Part shown: positions 35,271-42,919 of the stretch, in pieces
Numbering within the stretch: the stretch's first letter is position 1
Layout: every line of letters begins with the position of its first letter
Assembly: GCA_963790475.1 (NCBI GenBank)
Contig: CAWBOS010000010.1
Span: 1,440,001 to 1,504,000, forward strand
DNA from: an uncultured delta proteobacterium
GTDB lineage: Bacteria; Desulfobacterota; RBG-13-43-22
Direction: 5' to 3'
Length of the DNA: 64,000 nucleotides
Notes under the pieces: model-generated
Databases searched by the model: none
What the model was told of the DNA's origin: nothing
What the model saw: only the letters and a program-made list of their open reading frames with translations
Program-made: the position numbers and the translations under genes

Positions 35271-36009
35271 AAATATTCTGGCCATTGCCGCCCGCATTGA
35301 TAACCAGCTTATCGGAGACCGGCGTTTTCTGGCTCTGGCCATTTTTCTGCCGTTGATCATATTTTATCTTTTCAAGGTCTTTATCCGGACCTTGCCGGTT
35401 GCCCTCCTCACCAATCCTCAGGAACTTTATATCATGATCACGGCCTTTATCATTCACTTCACCTCTTATGTGCTCTGTCTGATCGTCATCGTTAGGGAGC
35501 GACGGGATGAAACACTCATCCGGATGTTTGTCAACAACTTCAGCCGCGCCGAGGTCGTCATCGGCTATCTCCTGGGCTATGCCTCCCTGGCCACCCTTCA
35601 GGCCCTGCTCATCATGCTGGAGGTGAATCTACTATTCCATTTGTCTTACGGCTTAAGCCTGATGCTTTCCCTGTTCGTCGTCATGTGGACCCTGTCCATG
35701 ATCTCCATTGCCCTGGGGATCATGGTCTCCAACCTGGCCAGGACCGAAGCCCAGATCTTTCCTTTCATCCCCTTATTTATCCTGACCACGATTTTCATCT
35801 CCGGGTTGATCCTGCCCCTGTCGAGCATCCCCTGGAGTGTGCGCTGGTTGTCCTATCTGATCCCTTTCACCTATGCCCAGATATTGATTAGAGCCATGAT
35901 CGCCGAAGCGGGTGGGCTCTTTTCCCATCTCAGCCGGTTCGGCGTCCTGATTCTTTACGGCTTGGTTCTGTTGTTTTTGTCGAGTATGACTTTGAAGCAA
36001 AGGGAGTGA
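35263..36009 (+). CDS. ABC-2 type permease
   Basis: IVRER motif, 6 TM helices, overlaps the ATPase gene. Confidence 0.88.
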   Translation: MVRNILAIAARIDNQLIGDRRFLALAIFLPLIIFYLFKVFIRTLPVALLTNPQELYIMITAFIIHFTSYVLCLIVIVRERRDETLIRMFVNNFSRAEVVIGYLLGYASLATLQALLIMLEVNLLFHLSYGLSLMLSLFVVMWTLSMISIALGIMVSNLARTEAQIFPFIPLFILTTIFISGLILPLSSIPWSVRWLSYLIPFTYAQILIRAMIAEAGGLFSHLSRFGVLILYGLVLLFLSSMTLKQRE

Positions 36010-36026
36010 GGATCTTGAAGGAAATA

Positions 36027-36428
36027 ATGAATATCAAACTTAAAGAAATTGTAAAAGTTTGGCCTGATATCGCGCCTATATTTTCTGTGCCGCATAATGA
36101 AAAAGACAACAACAAATTGATTAGTCTCCTTGACAGCCTTATTGACGAAGTCGGGAATAATGAGAACCATTCCTTATCTTCGCTGATGGAGACGATTGGG
36201 AGCCTGATTGAAACCTACGAATCCCAATATATTAAGGAGATAGAGGGTCATCCGATAGATGCTCTGAATGCCTTGATGGAAGAACATGGTCTGAAACAGT
36301 CGGATCTATCTGAAATCGGCAGCCAGGGAGTTGTATCATAAATTTTATCCGGTAAACGTCAACTTAATGTCCGTCAAATAAAAATGTTAAGTAATCGGTT
36401 CCATGTTTCTCCAGCGGTCTTTATTTAA
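36027..36428 (+). pseudogene. HigA-like HTH antitoxin with a nonsense mutation
   Basis: HGLKQSDLSEIGSQGVVS-TAA(36339-36341)-ILSGKRQLNVRQIKMLSNRFHVSPAVFI*; TAA replaces the expected Glu (GAA) in the HTH. Confidence 0.82.
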
Positions 36429-36509
36429 AACAAAACAATAAAAACCTTCCTCAAAAGAAGACTTGCTTTTCATTATAGAAGGAATGACGAGAATATTTTC
36501 CCCTTATCG

Positions 36510-36577
36510 GTCACCCCGGCGAAAGCCGGGGTCCAGAAGATATCGAAATGACTGGATTCCGGCTTAGGAGAAATGAC
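36510..36577. repeat. REP-like double hairpin (third copy, degenerate second arm)
   Basis: GTCACCCCGGCGAAAGCCGGGGTCCAG...CTGGATTCCGGC...AATGAC. Confidence 0.7.
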
Positions 36578-36787
36578 GTCATTGGACTTTTCTAAAAGGC
36601 TCATTTATAATTATTTAAAGAGGATAGGTTGTATTCAGGGTTTGAACCGGCTAACCAAAAATAAATTGTTATGGCTTAGAGATCTAACTTAACCCTTCGT
36701 GTTGTGAAACTATGATCCATATAGGGTAAAGGTTGATGGGCGATGAATTGAGGAGAGGATCAGAAGCTTATTAAAGGAGAATATATT

Positions 36788-36985
36788 ATGGTGAGAATAA
36801 CCGTGGAAATAGAAGACTCAAAGGCAGAATTGTTGCAGAAGAAGGCGGAAAAGTTTGGGCTTTTGCCTGCCCAATTTGTAACCGCCTCTATTGAAGACCT
36901 GATTGGTCAAACGGAACCGGAATTTGAGGCGGCGATGCGCAAGGTCTTGTCTAAAAACAAGGAACTTTACAAGCGGTTAGCCTGA
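36788..36985 (+). CDS. Small putative antitoxin (Phd-like partner of Doc)
   Basis: 65 aa, KNKELYKRLA C-terminus, TGATG overlap with the doc gene, strong RBS. Confidence 0.7.
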   Translation: MVRITVEIEDSKAELLQKKAEKFGLLPAQFVTASIEDLIGQTEPEFEAAMRKVLSKNKELYKRLA

Positions 36986-37203
36986 TGCGCTACCTTTCTA
37001 TCCGCGAAGTTTTTGAACTGCACGAGCGTATCATAGAAACCTCCGGCGGTGCTCGTGGGATTCGAGATATTGGAGCCCTTGAATCTTCACTCAATCAACC
37101 CCGTCTCACCTTCGATCAGGCTGATCTCTACCCCGATGTTGTGACGAAAGCCGCTGCCCTTTGCTTTTTCTTAGTATTGAATCACCCCTTTATTGACGGT
37201 TAA
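36985..37203 (+). pseudogene. Truncated Doc/Fic-family toxin
   Basis: GIRDIGALES and KAAAL motifs; ends at NHPFIDG* inside the HPFxDGNKR motif. Confidence 0.8.
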
Positions 37204-37371
37204 GACCTTCACCGCCTCGTTTCGGTCAGAAAACACTTTTCCTACCTTGTCTTCGCGCCCTGGTTTTCTTCTTGACCGTGTCATCTCTTTTCCTTATACT
37301 CTTTTCATCAAAATTGAATCGCTATTCATAATATGTTTTTTTGTTACTAGCCGGCACCTAATAGACCTTAT

Positions 37372-38493
37372 ATGGGAGAAATAATTATAAAAGAAGTACT
37401 TACACGGAAAGAGCTTCGTGAATTCATTTTTCTGCCTGAGAAAATCCATAAAACAGAGCCCGATTGGCTTCCTCCTATTTATAGGGATGAACGTTTGCTG
37501 TTTAATAAGAAGAAAAACAAATCGTATAAGTATGCTGATGCACTTTTACTCCTGGCGTCGAAGGATAATAAACCTGTCGGAAGAATTATGGGTATTATCA
37601 ACAAAAGATATAACGCTATCAACAATGAGAATCACGGACGATTCTGTTTTATGGAATGTTATTACGACCAGGAAGTTTTTCATGCCCTGATAGTCAGGGT
37701 TGAGAATTGGACAAGAGAAAACGGAATGAGCAGCCTTGTTGGTCCACTTGGATTTTCAGACAAAGATCCCCAGGGATTTCAGATTGAAGGCTTTGAATAT
37801 CTCCCGTTTATGACCAGCGCAAACAATTCTCCATATATGGCAAACCTTATTGAAGCAGAAGGGTATGAAAAGAAGATTGACCTGGTAAATTACCTCGCCA
37901 AAATGCCTGAGCAGCTTCCTTCGGTCTATGAGAAGGTACTTTCAAGGCTTGAGAAAACTCAGGGATATAAAATTATTGAGTTTAATAAGAAAAAAGAGCT
38001 GAAACCATATATTTTACCTGTTCTCGAACTTATGAATGAGACATTCAACGAGATCTATGGTTTTGTTCCACTGAATGATAAAGAGAAAACTGAATTTGCC
38101 GGAAGATATCTTCCTATCCTCAACCCTGAATTTATAAAGGTGGTGGAAGCCGACGGAGGTTTGATCGGATTTGCAATAGGGATGCCCGATGTTAGCTCCG
38201 GAATTAAAGCTTGCCGAGGCAGATTACTCCCCTTCGGGATATTTAAAGTCCTGAAGGAATCAAAGAGTTCAAAGAAACTGCTGATGATGCTTGGCGGCGT
38301 TAAGAAACCTTACCGGGGTAAAGGAATTGAAGTTCTTATGGGCGTGAAAATTCTGCAGTCAGGCATAAAGCACAAGATGGATGTTATCGACAGCCACCTT
38401 ATTCTGGAAGATAATACCAGGATGAGGTCTGAATATGAGAGAATCGGAGGTCAGGTAGTAAAAAAATTCAGGATCTACCAGAAAGCTTTATAA
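37372..38493 (+). CDS. Tandem GNAT-fold protein
   Basis: WLPP, PVGRI, GPLGFS, YRGKG and ILEDN motifs; AT-rich relative to neighbours. Confidence 0.7.
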   Translation: MGEIIIKEVLTRKELREFIFLPEKIHKTEPDWLPPIYRDERLLFNKKKNKSYKYADALLLLASKDNKPVGRIMGIINKRYNAINNENHGRFCFMECYYDQEVFHALIVRVENWTRENGMSSLVGPLGFSDKDPQGFQIEGFEYLPFMTSANNSPYMANLIEAEGYEKKIDLVNYLAKMPEQLPSVYEKVLSRLEKTQGYKIIEFNKKKELKPYILPVLELMNETFNEIYGFVPLNDKEKTEFAGRYLPILNPEFIKVVEADGGLIGFAIGMPDVSSGIKACRGRLLPFGIFKVLKESKSSKKLLMMLGGVKKPYRGKGIEVLMGVKILQSGIKHKMDVIDSHLILEDNTRMRSEYERIGGQVVKKFRIYQKAL

Positions 38494-38743
38494 ATATACT
38501 TCCGGGAATAAGGAATATCTCCTTCCTATCCAGTTAAATTATTTGATATTTGATTTTAAGATCTGAAAATGAAAAAAAATCCAAGAAACTCCTTAAACTG
38601 GAACCTTGCTATTCTCTTTTGTTTGCTATCCGCTCCCATTACCGGATTTTTGCCTTTATCGAAGACAGCAGTTCTTGTATCATCATCGAAGATCAGATGA
38701 GTATTGAACCTCACATCAGTAAACCAGTTATTAAGATTAGCTG

Positions 38744-39013
38744 TTAATATCCTTTCATGACCATCTTCTCAAAAAGAACCTTGCGCTCCCTTGGGTTTCT
38801 TGACGTCGATAGCCACGAAATACTTATTCTGGTTGATATAGTATCAGAGCGGATTGGAGTGTTTCCAGAATTTTCCCCAGTAAGTCCCTCCCCGCCAGTA
38901 ATCCCCCTGAAAGGGCACTTCCACCTGATCACTTCCGCCCCGTACTGCCCCAGAAATTTGGCGGCCGTAGGGCCGAAAATTCTGTGGGACAAATCGAGGA
39001 CCCGGATACCGGT
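38744..39013 (-). pseudogene. CaiB/BaiF family III CoA-transferase fragment
   Basis: GIRVLDLSHRIFGP...YGAEVI, frameshift to VEVPLQGDYWR...INQNK, internal stops. Confidence 0.7.
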
Positions 39014-39216
39014 CTATCCCTCTAAATTAGTTTCAGCATTTTTCGGAAATGGCTTGAAGGCCATCCATTGCCTTAGCGGTGGTGTCTAAAAACCTGTTCC
39101 CCTGATCAGGTCTGGCACAGGCTTGGCTCATCGCTTTACGCTCCGGCTCCCAAAGCGATAAGGGCAGCGGGAGTCGGGTAGTGTCCTAATTTGAACGGGT
39201 AAAATTTAAAAAACAT

Positions 39217-40290
39217 TCATTCGGTGGGAATTTCATATTCAGAAGGAGATGGCGAAGGATATTCTACGAATTCCATAACCCTGTCAATCATTTGTTTAAC
39301 GGCCTCATTAGCATTTATTGGGATTATTTCTATGTGTGGGTGTTGTTTTGCAAATACCCGAAAAACTTCATCCGCAAAAGCTTGACCTATAGATTCAACG
39401 TCCCTAAAATCGAATAATACAGTTTTGAAGCGTTCTATTCTTATTAATAGCCGTTTCGCTTGGGATCTGGATATTAATTGTTCATTACCATATTGTGCCA
39501 ACCGAACAGGCACGATAGTTTTTGTAAACCCATATTCATTATCCGAAAATCTATTAAATACTTCTTTGGTTGTTCGTGCCGTATTATTTTTTAATTTCAT
39601 TGTTATATAAGTTCCATTTTGATATTCTGAATTTTGTAATATCCAATCTCCCTCCTTGTCATATGTATGCGAAAGAAAAACTTCACCCGATAAAATACTG
39701 TATTCATCGAACATGCGTGAAGTAAAAAAAATACCCTCTCCAGTATGACGAGCTGGATCAGTTGTCAATTTTCCTTTAGTCAATTCGATTATTGCGTGAC
39801 GCTCATCAAGAAGCCCCAACATGTTTTTAATTTTCGTAAAAATGCCTATTCCATCATCAAGTATATTCATTTTCGTAGAATGTGCGGTTTTAGAAATGAT
39901 AATTACAACACATGTCCCCCCAGAATGATCAATAACATTGTTAAACATTTCCGAAAAACCATAATGCCAAATATCGAGTGTATTCTCTGGCAACTGACCC
40001 AATCGTTGAACTATCTCATTTCTCCATATGACATCTTCTGCACGGTTGTCTTCAAGAGAAAACTTTGCTCTCCAAATTGATTGTGGGTGTAAAGTATAAC
40101 GAACTCCTTGCCCTTTTCCTTTTCGGTCTAAAACTTCTTGTTTTATAAGTTGTTGAATATGTTTATTTACTGCCTGTCGAGAAATATTAAATTCATTAGT
40201 AGTAAGATTAACTATATCTTTTGGATTTGCCTCGACATTTTCAAGAACAAATTCTCTTATTTTTTCACCACGTTTCCTTAATTTTGTCAT
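39217..40290 (-). CDS. Passenger: HTH + HATPase-like + STAS-like (DUF4325-type) protein
   Basis: N-terminal HTH (ISRQAVNKHI), EMFNNVIDHS, DDGIGIF, HTGEGIFFTSR, SRSQAKR and IGQAFADEVFRVF motifs. Confidence 0.8.
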   Translation of the reverse strand: MTKLRKRGEKIREFVLENVEANPKDIVNLTTNEFNISRQAVNKHIQQLIKQEVLDRKGKGQGVRYTLHPQSIWRAKFSLEDNRAEDVIWRNEIVQRLGQLPENTLDIWHYGFSEMFNNVIDHSGGTCVVIIISKTAHSTKMNILDDGIGIFTKIKNMLGLLDERHAIIELTKGKLTTDPARHTGEGIFFTSRMFDEYSILSGEVFLSHTYDKEGDWILQNSEYQNGTYITMKLKNNTARTTKEVFNRFSDNEYGFTKTIVPVRLAQYGNEQLISRSQAKRLLIRIERFKTVLFDFRDVESIGQAFADEVFRVFAKQHPHIEIIPINANEAVKQMIDRVMEFVEYPSPSPSEYEIPTE

Positions 40291-40313
40291 TTTAAAATCC
40301 TTAGAATCTATAA

Positions 40314-40367
40314 TTGACAACCTTTTTTGGAATAATTGTAAACCTTATGGTCTTATTTGTCAACCTT
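40314..40367 (-). promoter_or_regulatory. Promoter with three phased direct repeats (putative operator)
   Basis: Minus-strand TTGACA-N17-TACAAT (40363-40335); repeats TTGACAACCTT, TTGTAAACCTT and TTGTCAACCTT at 40314, 40336 and 40357. Confidence 0.65.
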
Positions 40368-40439
40368 TTGGTTTAAATTAATAGAAGAGCCGGGGAAGGG
40401 ATTGATAAACTATAGAATGGTTTTATGAGGTTATATATT

Positions 40440-40772
40440 TTAGAAAATTTTGTTTTTTTTGACTGATTTACTTTTTGCGTCCTGAACAATTGCCGCCCGT
40501 ACCGCTTTTTCTGGCGAATCTATTTTCCCCTGATGGAGTACCGCATAATATTTTCTCTTTTTTGATCCTTCAATCTCATGGGACCACGCGTAAGCTCGAT
40601 TTGCTGTAGGATGGTTTTGAAGGTCAAAAACCGCGACAATCCCTTCCCAAGCTGTATCGAGGCCAAATTTTTCCACCACTATTACATCCTCGATATAAGA
40701 AGCGCGGCAATTGTGTAATCGTTCAATGGCCCTTTGAAGGTCTTTATTGTTCTGTTGGATCTTCTTTTTCAT
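40440..40772 (-). CDS. Passenger: small hypothetical protein
   Basis: WEGIVAVFDL...RAYAWS...YAVLH...AVRAAI looks like a globular protein; overlaps the upstream passenger gene; start uncertain. Confidence 0.65.
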   Translation of the reverse strand: MKKKIQQNNKDLQRAIERLHNCRASYIEDVIVVEKFGLDTAWEGIVAVFDLQNHPTANRAYAWSHEIEGSKKRKYYAVLHQGKIDSPEKAVRAAIVQDAKSKSVKKNKIF

Positions 40773-41532
40773 CTTCAATGCTTTCTGGTAAATCCTCCTC
40801 ATTTTCCTGCAAAAATTTTATCAATTTCTTTATTGACTTAATAGTTGTCGGTTGTTCTCCAGAAATTATGATGCGTGCCTTTAACCCTCGCCCAATAGTA
40901 TAAGTTGCAATTTCCCTTTCATCGGGGGGCGCGGTTGTTGGCGCGAGTGTCGTTGTAGTTGGTGTTGTCGATATTGATGTGTTTGTACCTTGCATTGGTT
41001 TCTCCAGTGAAGGGACAGTTTCTACCGTCAAAGTATCCGAGTTCTTCAAGTTAGCAAAATCAATTGTTTTTTTAAAGTCAAGAAGAAAGCCATCCACCTT
41101 ATCAGCGTTAAATCCATAATCCTTTATCAGCCTTACTTTTAGGTTTTGATCTGACGGTAACTGTCCCTTACATTCATTAAATAATTTATCATAAAGTGTT
41201 GGATTTAAAGCTAATTTTTTTATTGTCTTAATATATATCTCGTCAGATGGCTCATGCAACGCTAAATATATCGCTTCATCTGTTAGTATGATATCCTTTT
41301 GTTTCTCATAAATCAAGCCAAATTGTTTCAAGGCAGAAAGCACCCTCCCACCGTAACCACCTATGGTTTTATAACCGAGATGTTCATAGACGACTTTTAA
41401 AGGCATGGGATTGTTAGTATCTTTATTCCACAGAATTTTTGCCTTTTGAATGGCTTCTTCAAGACTAATCATGGGATATCCGGGACTTCGTTTTCCCGCC
41501 TTGCGTTCCTTCTTTTCTTGATCGCTATTCAT
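40744..41532 (-). CDS. Passenger: hypothetical protein, probable winged-helix N-domain
   Basis: RSPGYPMISLEEAI and LSALKQFGLI segments; RBS GAGG before ATG 41532; Thr/Pro-rich linker. Confidence 0.7.
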   Translation of the reverse strand: MNSDQEKKERKAGKRSPGYPMISLEEAIQKAKILWNKDTNNPMPLKVVYEHLGYKTIGGYGGRVLSALKQFGLIYEKQKDIILTDEAIYLALHEPSDEIYIKTIKKLALNPTLYDKLFNECKGQLPSDQNLKVRLIKDYGFNADKVDGFLLDFKKTIDFANLKNSDTLTVETVPSLEKPMQGTNTSISTTPTTTTLAPTTAPPDEREIATYTIGRGLKARIIISGEQPTTIKSIKKLIKFLQENEEDLPESIEDEKEDPTEQ

Positions 41533-41566
41533 TTCCGCACCTCTCTTTTCTATTGTGTTGGTTGTA

Positions 41567-41595
41567 GTTATAGTCTGCCTGTTCCCGAAAGTCAA
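41567..41595 (-). promoter_or_regulatory. Sigma70 promoter for the passenger genes
   Basis: Minus-strand TTGACT-N17-TATAAC. Confidence 0.6.
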
Positions 41596-41642
41596 GAACA
41601 ATTTTTTACGAACAATAGGATTAAAATATATTAATTTTGTTC

Positions 41643-41669
41643 TTGACAAATGAATTAGAGTGGTATAAT
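41643..41669 (+). promoter_or_regulatory. Promoter for the structured leader and transposase
   Basis: TTGACA-N15-TATAAT with a perfect extended -10 (TGgTATAAT). Confidence 0.6.
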
Positions 41670-41829
41670 TTAGGATTAAAAGATTGAAATTTACTTGGGA
41701 GGGAATGAAATGAGAAGAAAATTAGCCCTTACTGGTCAATCAATCGCCGCCAGTAGGGGCCATAACGAGAAGACCCCAGGTCCGATCATCCTTGGCGGGA
41801 ATAGACTTGGGGTCATGGCGATTCTTAAT

Positions 41830-41898
41830 GGGGCGCGGACTGGTTCCCCTGGAGGCCCTTACAACCAACCAGGCGGGGTTCGACACTCCGGCGCTCCA
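41830..41898 (+). ncRNA. tRNA-like RNA module (acceptor stem with G3:U70, T-arm, no D-stem or anticodon arm)
   Basis: GGGGCGC/GCGCTCC plus discriminator A; T-arm CGGGG-TTCGACA-CTCCG directly adjacent; single central stem. Confidence 0.6.
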
Positions 41899-41967
41899 CT
41901 TAAAAAGTGTTTCAATAACATAACAGACTATTGAGGTTTTGTCAATAGGAGACTTTGAGACTTTGAG

Positions 41968-42783
41968 ATGAACAATTTAAAGACTGAAAAGCAGGAAATG
42001 ATTGTCCGAGGTCTGGTCGAGGGTGCTTCAATACGTAGCTTAGAACGGCTTACAGAGGTCCATAGAGATACTATTATGCGCCTTCTTGTTCGGGTTGGGG
42101 ATTCTTGCGAAAAAATCATGGATTCAACCATGAAAGGGTTAACCTGCAAAAACATAGAGGTTGACGAGATATGGTCTTTTGTCGGCAAGAAGCAACGGCA
42201 CGTTGGCTTAGATGATGATCCTTCTAAGGTAGGTGATTTTTATACCTTCGTGGCCCTTGATTCAGATACTAAACTGATCCCCGCTTATAGGGTTGGGAAA
42301 CGTGATCTTTTCAATGCCCAGGCTTTTATAGATGATTTGGCCTCTCGTCTTAAAAACCGAGTTCAATTAAGTTCAGATAAATTACCCGCCTATGTTGAAG
42401 CGATTGAATCAACCTTTGGGGCCGATATTGATTATGGGCAAATTGTAAAGTCCTACGAGGCCGAACCACTTGGACCAGGTAGATACAGTCCTCCAAGGGT
42501 CGTTTCCGTCCTAAAAGAGTATATTTCCGGTAGTCCTGATTGGAATAAGATATGTACTTCTTATATTGAAAGGTCAAACTTAACAATGAGGATGCAAATA
42601 CGCCGGTTTACCCGTTTAACCAATGCTTTTAGTAAGAAACTGGAAAATCTCAAGGCGGCGGTTGCCCTTCATTTCGCCCATTATAATTTTGTGAGGGTTC
42701 ACGGAACAATCAAGGTTACTCCTGCAATGGAGGCAGGAATCACGGACCATATCTGGTCAATCCGTGATCTCATTTCAAATTAG
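41968..42783 (+). CDS. IS1-family DDE transposase (single ORF)
   Basis: HTH (EGASIRSLERLT), EVDEIWSFV, SSD, TSYIERSNLTMR and TPAMEAG motifs; stop codon lies within the right TIR. Confidence 0.88.
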   Translation: MNNLKTEKQEMIVRGLVEGASIRSLERLTEVHRDTIMRLLVRVGDSCEKIMDSTMKGLTCKNIEVDEIWSFVGKKQRHVGLDDDPSKVGDFYTFVALDSDTKLIPAYRVGKRDLFNAQAFIDDLASRLKNRVQLSSDKLPAYVEAIESTFGADIDYGQIVKSYEAEPLGPGRYSPPRVVSVLKEYISGSPDWNKICTSYIERSNLTMRMQIRRFTRLTNAFSKKLENLKAAVALHFAHYNFVRVHGTIKVTPAMEAGITDHIWSIRDLISN

Positions 42784-42919
42784 GACACTACCGGGAGTCG
42801 GGGAGGCTTGACTCCAAATCGGTGAAGGCTTATACTTAAAAACAATGCACAACGCAATTTGCGCCCTGGACAGGATGGCGGTTTTCCCGTCTTAAGAAAC
42901 AAAGGTACGAGGTTAGACA

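Follow-up and report, generated by a model that had tools for sequence, protein, structure and literature searches.

Why would a bacterial transposon carry, directly in front of its transposase gene, an RNA shaped like an alanine tRNA? The question is raised by a stretch of 64,000 nucleotides from an uncultured delta proteobacterium (GenBank assembly GCA_963790475.1, contig CAWBOS010000010.1, positions 1,440,001 to 1,504,000 of the forward strand), referred to below as the window. The original prediction, made from the letters alone, was that a module at 41830-41898 encodes a tRNA mimic with alanine identity inside an insertion sequence. We compared this locus with its relatives. A tRNA-like fold, its conservation and covariation, an invariant alanine identity set, linkage to the transposase, a location within a transposon and promoter- and terminator-like signals on both strands are observed. 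In the reading that we favour, and hold only tentatively, selection maintains the module as an RNA gene in its own right, whose product is a compact cloverleaf tRNA mimic with the alanine set, fixed in the transposase leader of one branch of cargo-carrying IS1-family transposons; the RNA would be excised by tRNA-processing enzymes and, together with an antisense partner, would gate the transposase.

The module and its relatives

The argument turns on two features of the window.

41830-41898, plus strand: compact tRNA-like module (sequence, minimum free energy (MFE) fold, covariance models, covariation)
41968-42783, plus strand: intact IS1-family DDE transposase of 271 aa (Pfam PF03400, NCBIfam IS1)

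The module is 69 bases long and is separated by a spacer of 69 nt from the transposase ATG at 41968. Its letters run, from 5' to 3', as a first acceptor strand, GGGGCGC (41830-41836), a D-like hairpin of 3 bp, GGA-CTGGT-TCC (41837-41847), a C and a long anticodon-like arm, CCTGG-A-GG-CCCTTACAA-CC-AA-CCAGG with CCCTTACAA as its loop (41848-41873), a T arm, CGGGG-TTCGACA-CTCCG (41874-41890), having one G-U pair in the stem and a 7-nt loop TTCGACA, and the second acceptor strand, GCGCTCC (41891-41897). The acceptor stem of 7 bp, which includes G3:U70, directly adjoins the T arm. A73 (41898) is followed by a C, the complete CCA not being encoded. The acceptor, G3:U70, A73 with its C, the T arm and the distance to the transposase are all present as originally predicted. 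In contrast, the single stem-loop then thought to replace the D and anticodon arms gives way to two arms, a D-like hairpin and an anticodon-like arm, as indicated by the MFE fold, which is a four-arm cloverleaf with the 3-bp D-like hairpin, and by covariation in relatives. For the subclass to which the window belongs, RNAalifold picks the helix CTGGTT/AACCAG, one of the two originally proposed, but this helix has almost no compensatory change and is disrupted in several relatives. For the single sequence, the z-score of the MFE against shuffles is unremarkable (-0.78), and the case for more than chance therefore depends on comparison with relatives.

A protein-seeded scan, with one genome per species, found 222 relatives, of which 80 loci were kept. 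The covariance model of the module was seeded with four gapless copies and rebuilt from 33 matches; the window copy scores 38.8 bits with model R1 and 65.6 bits with model R2 (E 1.2e-10). A module of at least 45 bits is present in the window and in 35 of the 80 loci, that is in 36 of 81 sources. Each strong copy has the orientation of the transposase and precedes its ATG by 23-69 nt; module length across copies is 66-70 nt. Four more loci have a weak or variant module: L081, L087 and, in reverse orientation, L032 and L042. Related elements thus do carry the module, and with covariation, in line with the original prediction. The hosts of the module are labelled Thermodesulfobacteriota, Myxococcota, Nitrospirota, Nitrospinota, Aminicenantota, Bacteroidota, Pseudomonadota (gamma) and others, and the compact architecture is kept in at least eight bacterial phyla. 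The transposases that go with a module group together on a quick maximum-likelihood tree (31 of 33 members of one group vs. 5 of 46 of the other); transposase identity among module-bearing loci is about 60-83%.

The same linkage is seen in whole genomes. The module region and the transposase are both single-copy in the 6.3-Mb genome of the window, where the module site is the sole match of model R2 above 32 bits, the next being genuine tRNAs with tRNA-Ala(CGC) at 31.3 bits. Among 100 relatives scanned, the module is present in only one, a genome of the same genus. Five other whole genomes together contain six modules, each of them 34-58 nt ahead of a transposase copy, while two more distant transposase paralogs (49-51% identity) are without a module. 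No stand-alone module was found by the model scan in the own genome, the 100 relatives or these five genomes.

Some copies depart from the common form. Those at L032:1288-1380 (minus strand), L042:2336-2388 (minus strand) and L087:1347-1436 (plus strand) are variant or decayed, and two of them are reversed or downstream of the transposase; the copies of L032 and L087 have insertions and an A-U in place of the G-U at 3:70. These variants may reflect loss or remodelling of the RNA in some lineages.

Module-less relatives have another solution at the same place. At the position of the module, 18 of the 80 loci have a divergent small helix-turn-helix (HTH) gene, which co-occurs with the module in 0 of 35 cases. 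This gene (for example L066:1204-1431, minus strand, and 17 other loci) is Xre/Cro-like, with weak Pfam matches, and has a palindromic promoter region directly upstream of the transposase. The position therefore looks like a control region of the transposase that different lineages have solved differently, and a regulatory role of the module fits such a replacement.

How strong is the evidence for the fold itself? In the alignment of the 36 strong copies, which was fitted to the model and is thereby biased towards the structure, 92% of the cells are paired, against 72% in shuffles and 41-61% with slid partners, controls that retain sequence relatedness; compensatory change affects 20 of the 23 pairs. 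Pairing reaches 99% of the cells in the acceptor and T stems, and the D-like hairpin covaries (GTGT/ACAC, GCAT/ATGC, GACT/AGTC, GAGT/ACTC, GGGT/ACCC, GGAA/TTCC). As in a tRNA cloverleaf, a 7-bp acceptor and a 5-bp T stem are combined with a T loop of the form TTCRA and with GG in the D-like loop. Apart from 3:70, the acceptor and T stems have six G-U and no A-C cells, which argues that the module fold belongs to the plus strand.

The alanyl-tRNA synthetase (AlaRS) recognizes G3:U70 in a regular acceptor helix together with G2:C71, G4:C69 and A73. Among 34 distinct strong copies, G1:C72, G2:C71 and G3:U70 are invariant and G4:C69 is found in 32, while acceptor pairs 5-7 vary freely among the four Watson-Crick types; A73 is present in 36 of 38 copies. 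By its sequence features, the module thus has the full AlaRS identity set and would be a candidate for charging. RNase P substrates, for their part, have a 12-bp acceptor/T stack, a T-loop/D-loop elbow, a preferred U at position -1 and a 3' RCCA. At the level of sequence, the module matches with its 7+5 stack, its loops, a U(-1) in 30 of 36 copies and a C after A73, at least one C following in 28 of 38 copies (CCA in 9, CC in 6, a single C in 13). The original interpretation is thus supported in part: the central claim of a tRNA mimic with an alanine identity set inside an IS1-family element holds, the set being invariant and the module lying between inverted repeats, while excision by host tRNA-processing enzymes and a regulatory or decoy role are predictions.

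Is the module then simply a member of a known family, or a remnant of one? ARAGORN found no tRNA or tmRNA gene in the window and, at the module site, an Rfam scan with E <= 10 gave mascRNA as its best match (E 1.1) and no tRNA match; that these two programs would yield no canonical match had been anticipated. In related elements, the best score with Rfam tRNA is 25 bits, under the gathering score of 29. The module shares with bacterial tRNA-Ala the 7/5 acceptor/T stack, G1-G4 with G3:U70, A73, the TTCRA loop and the GG of the D loop. It differs by its length of 66-70 nt, by the missing residues 8-9, by a 5-nt D loop on a D stem of 3-4 bp, and by an anticodon-like stem that has 7 bp or is interrupted; it has no UGC, GGC or CGC anticodon and shows C37 or an expanded loop.

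tmRNA (SsrA), whose 5' end is made by RNase P and which is charged with alanine, is also similar. The module has a GGGG...CUCC acceptor with G3:U70, A73, a partial CCA, a G-rich T arm and a reduced D region, and modules of other elements match tmRNA at 27.3, 25.7 and 17.6 bits, all below the gathering score of 47. However, its acceptor strands are 55 nt apart instead of about 300 and enclose no tag reading frame, there is a closed anticodon-like arm where tmRNA has helix 2, and the module lies in a transposon upstream of the transposase. The genuine host tmRNA is intact on another contig with different acceptor pairs, and the module site is not among the tmRNA matches of the own genome. Finally, in mascRNA-type RNAs, RNase P and RNase Z release a tRNA-like body from a longer transcript. 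The mascRNA / MEN-beta family (RF01684) gives the best shape match in Rfam, with 30.4 and 29.6 bits in two relatives, under its gathering score of 42.5; this family is eukaryotic and lacks the alanine identity set.

These resemblances could mean that the module derives by decay from a piece of a host tRNA-Ala or tmRNA gene, or that it is what remains of an attachment site beside the insertion. The sub-threshold scores of other elements with tmRNA and tRNA would fit such an origin, as would the real tRNA genes just beyond the right end in L022, L043 and L068. Yet the module lies inside a unit bounded by inverted repeats and target duplications in seven of seven complete elements, compensatory changes are seen across phyla, host tRNAs score at most 31 bits where the module scores 65.6, and recent transfer of a single fragment is argued against by the transposase identities and the tree. 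With the intact host tmRNA elsewhere, whose acceptor differs, this origin, which had been named as a pitfall when the module was proposed, is scarcely credible. A variant, in which the element inserted beside a pre-existing tRNA-like gene, was suggested by L024 and L033, whose shared sequence starts no earlier than about 60 nt before the ATG; it was rejected because the pairs of inverted repeats show the module to be internal.

The leader and the two strands

Upstream and downstream of the module, the following features were recognized.

41643-41669, plus strand: predicted sigma-70-type promoter of the RNA and the transposase, TTGACA, 15-nt spacer, TGg-TATAAT (sequence, custom scan)
41697-41718, plus strand: Shine-Dalgarno (SD)-like GGGAGGG and start motif ATGAGAAGA at the 5' end of the leader (class-A alignment)
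41723-41762, plus strand: hairpin A, 41723-41735 with 41750-41762 (RNAalifold, MAFFT pair counts)
41742-41823, plus strand: pseudoknot of the hairpin A loop AATCGCC (41742-41748) with GGCGATT (41817-41823) (pair counts)
41772-41814, plus strand: hairpin B, 41772-41784 with 41802-41814 (pair counts); terminator-like on the minus strand, where a U-rich tail follows it
41917-41945, minus strand: predicted antisense promoter, TTGACA (41945-41940), 17 nt, TG-extended TATGTT (41922-41917) (scan, 10 of 12 matches plus TG)

Three points are new with respect to the original prediction. A consensus promoter is predicted to drive both the RNA and the transposase. The module appears to be bracketed by an antisense promoter, convergent and conserved, and by a terminator on the minus strand. 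A subclass that includes the window adds a pseudoknotted 5' domain with a start codon.

As regards the first point, the standard promoter scan omits 41643-41669 because its spacers are limited to 16-18 nt, and a scan that allows 15 nt finds the site. In relatives, promoters of the TTGACA-17-TATAAT type precede the module by 51-82 nt where the leader is short and by 152-164 nt where it is long. The spacer between module and ATG is 33-37 nt in many copies, and the mean promoter score on the plus strand is 7.2 vs. 6.9 in shuffles. Since this spacer is short and without a good plus-strand promoter, and since promoters are found upstream of the module, the transposase must be transcribed through the module.

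In the subclass of the window (14 aligned members), the 5' domain of the leader consists of the SD-like box and ATGAGAAGA, hairpin A, hairpin B, and a pseudoknot that joins the loop of A to the linker ahead of the module. In an alignment made with MAFFT, which was not fitted to the structure, 94.8% of the cells of this domain are paired, against 42-48% with slid partners, and 27 of 48 pairs show compensatory change. Such change is seen in 10 of 13 pairs of hairpin A (94% of cells paired in the MAFFT alignment), in 11 of 13 pairs of hairpin B, and in three of seven pairs of the pseudoknot (96% of cells paired), for example GTCACC/GGTGAC in L019 and L020. Many pairs of hairpin A are G-U, so that the plus strand is taken as the folded one.

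All 14 aligned class-A leaders keep the SD box and ATGAGAAGA (one leader has GTG and another the variant ATGAGACTA), and in the short-leader copies of eight loci an ATG stands 6-7 nt past the -10 box. Ribosome loading at the 5' end of the leader thus looks conserved. In these eight loci (L012, L018, L022, L023, L026, L027, L037 and L049) the mRNA start looks leaderless, and the open reading frame (ORF) crosses the hairpin and the module; in L022, L023, L027, L037 and L049 the leader ORF ends in an ATGA overlap with the transposase start.

Could the region then encode a protein, the RNA fold being incidental? In the window, a 79-codon ORF (41695-41934) starts at the conserved SD-ATG. The constancy of SD and start motif in class A and the ATG close to the -10 box would be accounted for by a small protein, and so would ORFs that are often open through the module, five of 10 ending in the ATGA overlap. 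However, the ORFs have from 3 to 89 codons, their frame relative to the module differs among copies, and within class A it is shifted by a 1-nt indel; given this variation in length and frame, the leader ORFs are not read as genes. In addition, the substitutions in helices are compensatory rather than synonymous, most frames are open anyway in this GC-rich stretch, and there is no Pfam match. A coding function is thus very improbable, if a shade less so than decay from a host gene.

The opposite strand carries signals of its own. The predicted antisense promoter is directed towards the module, and its -35 box overlaps the SD and ATG of the transposase. Over 36 loci, promoter-like sites on the minus strand of the spacer score 9.3 on average, against 7.2 for the plus strand and 6.9 for shuffles; in 21 of the 36, the antisense -10 box ends 7-10 nt from the 3' end of the module. 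In 33 of 36 loci, a GC-rich hairpin just past the 5' end of the module has a U-rich tail on the minus strand; the plus strand shows this arrangement in 4 of the 36. These signals outline a predicted convergent antisense RNA of about 115-150 nt that covers the module. The idea that the module itself acts as an antisense regulator is thereby reversed, the module being covered by a separate, conserved antisense unit with its own promoter-like and terminator-like signals on the minus strand.

Two known systems invite comparison here. The C4 antisense RNA of phages P1 and P7 has a tRNA-like acceptor end and is cut by RNase P from the leader of the operon that it controls. Like C4, the module is a small tRNA-ended RNA in a leader on a mobile element, and its processing, if it occurs, would be a further likeness. 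Nonetheless, the C4 family of Rfam has no match in the region of the window (E <= 10) or in five related elements (E <= 1). Inspection of the module loops against the transposase leader gave only short, non-conserved complementarities; in place of C4-like pairing, there is the separate convergent antisense unit predicted above. By the defining features tested, the module is not a member of the tRNA, tmRNA or C4 families.

The second system is the RNA-IN/RNA-OUT pair of IS10, in which convergent promoters at the 5' end of the transposase gene produce a short structured antisense RNA opposite the leader. Convergent promoters and an antisense RNA opposite the transposase leader are likewise predicted here. 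The differences are that the overlap excludes the ribosome-binding site of the transposase, that the sense leader is a tRNA mimic with an identity set, and that the element belongs to the IS1 and not the IS4 family.

On this basis, the sense/antisense pair could be the whole functional unit: a minus-strand small RNA would pair with the transposase leader and convergent transcription would limit the transposase as in IS10, the tRNA shape serving mainly as stable arms and kissing loops, or being a relic of the captured sequence. The conserved position of the minus-strand promoter-like sites, with the one found by the scan in the window, and the strand asymmetry of the terminator-like hairpin agree with such a unit. 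The loop sequence YUUA also fits the YUNR U-turn motif, a feature of antisense recognition loops. What this explanation leaves unaccounted for is the invariant G1-G4/C69-C72, U(-1), A73-C(CA), the TTCRA T loop and the GG of the D-like loop. Besides, on the antisense RNA the counterpart of G3:U70 is an A-C mismatch, G-U but no A-C cells occur in the acceptor and T arms, and the antisense RNA misses the ribosome-binding site of the transposase. As a full account it seems to us rather unlikely.

The transposon and its other genes

The host element is a cargo-carrying transposon of 3,616 bp (39177-42792). Besides the RNA region and the transposase, it has three cargo ORFs, all on the minus strand.

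39169-39176, no strand: left 8-bp target-site duplication GGGAGTCG, a direct repeat outside the inverted repeats
39177-39195, plus strand: left terminal inverted repeat GGTAGTGTCCTAATTTGAA, complementary to 42774-42792 at all 19 nt
39217-40320, minus strand: cargo ORF of 367 aa, DUF4325 and histidine-kinase-like ATPase region (Pfam)
40440-40802, minus strand: small conserved cargo protein "LHxC", 120 aa (tblastn, AlphaFold2)
40744-41649, minus strand: cargo ORF p301, 301 aa as listed, with an internal ATG near 41535 (ORF list)
42774-42792, minus strand: right terminal inverted repeat, perfect complement of the left repeat, overlapping the transposase stop codon
42793-42800, no strand: right 8-bp target-site duplication GGGAGTCG, a direct repeat

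Perfect inverted repeats flanked by a direct repeat identify the unit as a transposon. Two matches to the inverted repeat are present in the window, against none expected from shuffles. The same repeats bound six elements of 2.9-5.7 kb in five other genomes, with 8-bp duplications (one of 9 bp, imperfect), and the module is inside the bounded unit in all seven complete elements examined. The right-end motif AAATTAGGACACTACC is found in about 75 of 81 related loci (the 80 and L091), at the transposase stop or up to 1.3 kb downstream. In the IS1 family, inverted repeats begin with GGnnnTG and target duplications have 8-9 bp (ISfinder). With an inverted repeat GGTAGTG... and an 8-bp duplication, the element of the window has IS1-type ends, and so have the six other complete elements. 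The transposase matches Pfam PF03400 (DDE_Tnp_IS1) at E 3.8e-8 and 34.2 bits, above the cut-off of 24.1, over a stretch of 36 residues only, and NCBIfam transpos_IS1 at 66.5 bits (E 3e-18), below the cut-off of 100 bits; plasmid homologs with less than 50% identity are annotated "IS1 family transposase". The insertion sequence of the original prediction, with ends of the IS1 type and a transposase of probable IS1 affinity, is not a simple one, being a 3.6-kb transposon with cargo.

Two roles tied to the element itself were considered and rejected. For RNA-guided targeting, inspection of seven elements gave no match between the variable parts of the module and the 8-bp target duplications. As for a suppressor of in-frame stops, neither the transposase nor the cargo ORFs would need one, since all are intact.

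Turning to the cargo, the 367-aa ORF matches PF14213 at E 2e-17 and PF13581 at 25.2 bits, under the cut-off of 27.4 bits, and it has a homolog in one other locus only. The LHxC protein is the commonest accessory gene of the transposon family, with tblastn matches in 40 searched sequences, with and without the module. It has about 100-120 aa and the pattern LHxC...VWEG...YAWS...AVL...VRAAIV. Its AlphaFold2 model (pLDDT 88) consists of a helix, a four-strand sheet and a helix; it belongs to no Pfam or NCBIfam family, and Foldseek gave no PDB match at E <= 0.001. p301 has no Pfam or NCBIfam match. Its homologs occur in 13 other loci, 11 with a strong module and two, L081 and L032, with weak variant copies.

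p301 and another gene, geneX (L097:1758-2546, plus strand), both of unknown family, immediately precede the RNA region. In flanks of 1.5 kb, both were seen only in module-bearing elements, strong or weak variant, and they could be functional partners of the RNA; BLASTP shows no relation between the two.

The transposon lies within a low-GC island (about 36000-42850) that extends to its left and is therefore taken as older than the insertion. In the part left of the transposon (36000-39170), small toxin-antitoxin-like ORFs (36006-36341 and about 36790-36985) and, after 36985, a truncated Doc/Fic-like stretch were noticed by eye in the translations. In the transposase leader of the window, an 8-nt tandem duplication (41951-41966, GACTTTGA twice) widens the gap between the AGGAG box and the ATG to about 17 nt; in L011, the closest relative, GACTTTGA stands once. 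The duplication may weaken transposase translation in this copy. At three loci, genuine-looking tRNA genes stand 50-90 nt outside the right inverted repeat (L022:2925-2997, L043:2384-2456 and L068:2401-2472), which may reflect a preference for insertion near tRNA genes or a coincidence.

What the RNA may do

In the reading that we favour, the near-consensus promoter would transcribe the leader, the module and the transposase as a single unit, and the module would adopt an L-shaped, tRNA-like body. RNase P would cleave at its 5' end, and the tRNA 3'-end enzymes with the CCA-adding enzyme would complete its 3' end, thereby releasing an RNA of about 70 nt that AlaRS should be able to charge. The same cuts would separate the transposase reading frame from the strong promoter-proximal leader. 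The convergent antisense unit would start at the 3' end of the module and run to a terminator a little beyond the 5' end; in combination with it, such processing would keep transposase output low or conditional. Transcription, cleavage, CCA addition, alanylation and the regulatory effect are what we infer from the observed features.

Several points weigh against this proposal. Related loci share ancestry, so that counts over loci are not independent. The promoter and terminator calls are consensus matches, and individual shuffles reach maxima of 9-11.5; since shuffles attain similar scores, the argument relies on the constant position of the sites across loci. When all helices are counted without 3:70, G-U and A-C cells are balanced (30 vs. 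31), because the D and anticodon-like arms of the subclass of the window fit the model poorly, and the assignment to the plus strand therefore relies on the acceptor and T arms, on 3:70 and on the tRNA-specific loops. Leaders begin with a start codon and their ORFs often traverse the module, so that ribosomes could unfold it, which complicates the model. Finally, RNase P does not require G3:U70, and a role as a pure processing signal would leave the invariant alanine set unexplained. The set implies something beyond processing, for example charging or AlaRS binding.

The released RNA could act in trans, on translation or on systems that target tRNAs, as an alanine-charged missense or nonsense suppressor, as a decoy for the ribosome or for AlaRS and EF-Tu, or as a toxic RNA; the antisense RNA would then be the antidote in an RNA-RNA addiction module that stabilizes the transposon. 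A dedicated promoter of consensus strength and the invariant AlaRS set would be expected of such an RNA, and the sense/antisense layout is like that of type I toxin-antitoxin loci. The class B core, in which the linker is absent, the D loop has 5 nt, the anticodon stem 7 bp and the variable region 3 nt, is also reminiscent, in its compactness, of tRNA-Pyl and mitochondrial tRNA-Ser(UCN), both of which decode. The anticodon-like loop can be argued both ways. ACA is invariant within YUUACA, and the reading U33-NAC-R37 gives valine anticodons only, mostly UAC, with GAC in L044 and AAC in L028. Yet a canonical 7-nt loop has U33 and a purine 37, and neither register has them together: the 7-nt register, N-Y-U-U-A-C-A, gives UUA or CUA with C37, and with C33 in class A, while the NAC register requires a 9-nt loop and then has C33 in four copies. 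Moreover, the module is never found away from the transposase, a linkage of which a free trans-acting cargo gene would have no need, and intact transposase and cargo ORFs require no suppression.

Further support for action in trans may be drawn from irregular tRNAs of soil and sediment bacteria, which are reported to lie near toxin-antitoxin and transposon-related genes (Mukai et al., 2017; PMC5389517). In that study, some of these allo-tRNAs were charged yet unused in translation, two killed Escherichia coli, and a regulatory role was proposed. As described there, they are like the module in being non-canonical tRNA-shaped genes tied to mobile or addiction genes, but they have 8/4 or 9/3 stacks, long variable arms and serine identity, whereas the module has a 7/5 stack, no variable arm, alanine identity and a fixed place directly upstream of an IS1-family transposase. 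All in all, a role in trans is doubtful, to the same degree as that of a pure sense/antisense unit. The two are partly compatible with excision of a tRNA mimic from a gated leader, and the latter is partly contained in it.

A bolder proposal, which we consider improbable, goes further, namely that the transposon encodes a working, alanine-charged compact tRNA whose charging state or action on the ribosome is the signal. As a sensor, the uncharged RNA would pair through its free 3' end with the 5' end of the antisense RNA, coupling transposition to amino-acid supply. As a trans-acting RNA, it would mistranslate or poison ribosomes under the restraint of its antisense partner, forming an RNA-only addiction module. 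Either version, if true, would make a new class of transposon-borne regulator that exploits aminoacylation.

A description of the module was found neither in Rfam 15 nor in the literature searched, the irregular tRNAs in the supplements of PMC5389517 lying outside this comparison; the original claim of novelty stands to this extent. Nor did the literature searched mention any transposase leader that contains a transposon-borne tRNA mimic whose aminoacylation identity set is conserved. The family lends itself to experiment, with clear boundaries, a covariance model, about 36 sequences and predicted promoters on both strands. It adds a natural four-arm tRNA architecture of 66-70 nt, of relevance to tRNA structure, to recognition by AlaRS and RNase P, and to tRNA engineering. 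Transposons restrain their transposases through antisense RNAs, frameshifting and repressors. If the module is processed and charged as its sequence predicts, control of transposition or maintenance of the transposon would be tied directly to the maturation and charging of host tRNAs. The module RNA thus points to an undescribed link between jumping genes and the tRNA machinery of the cell.

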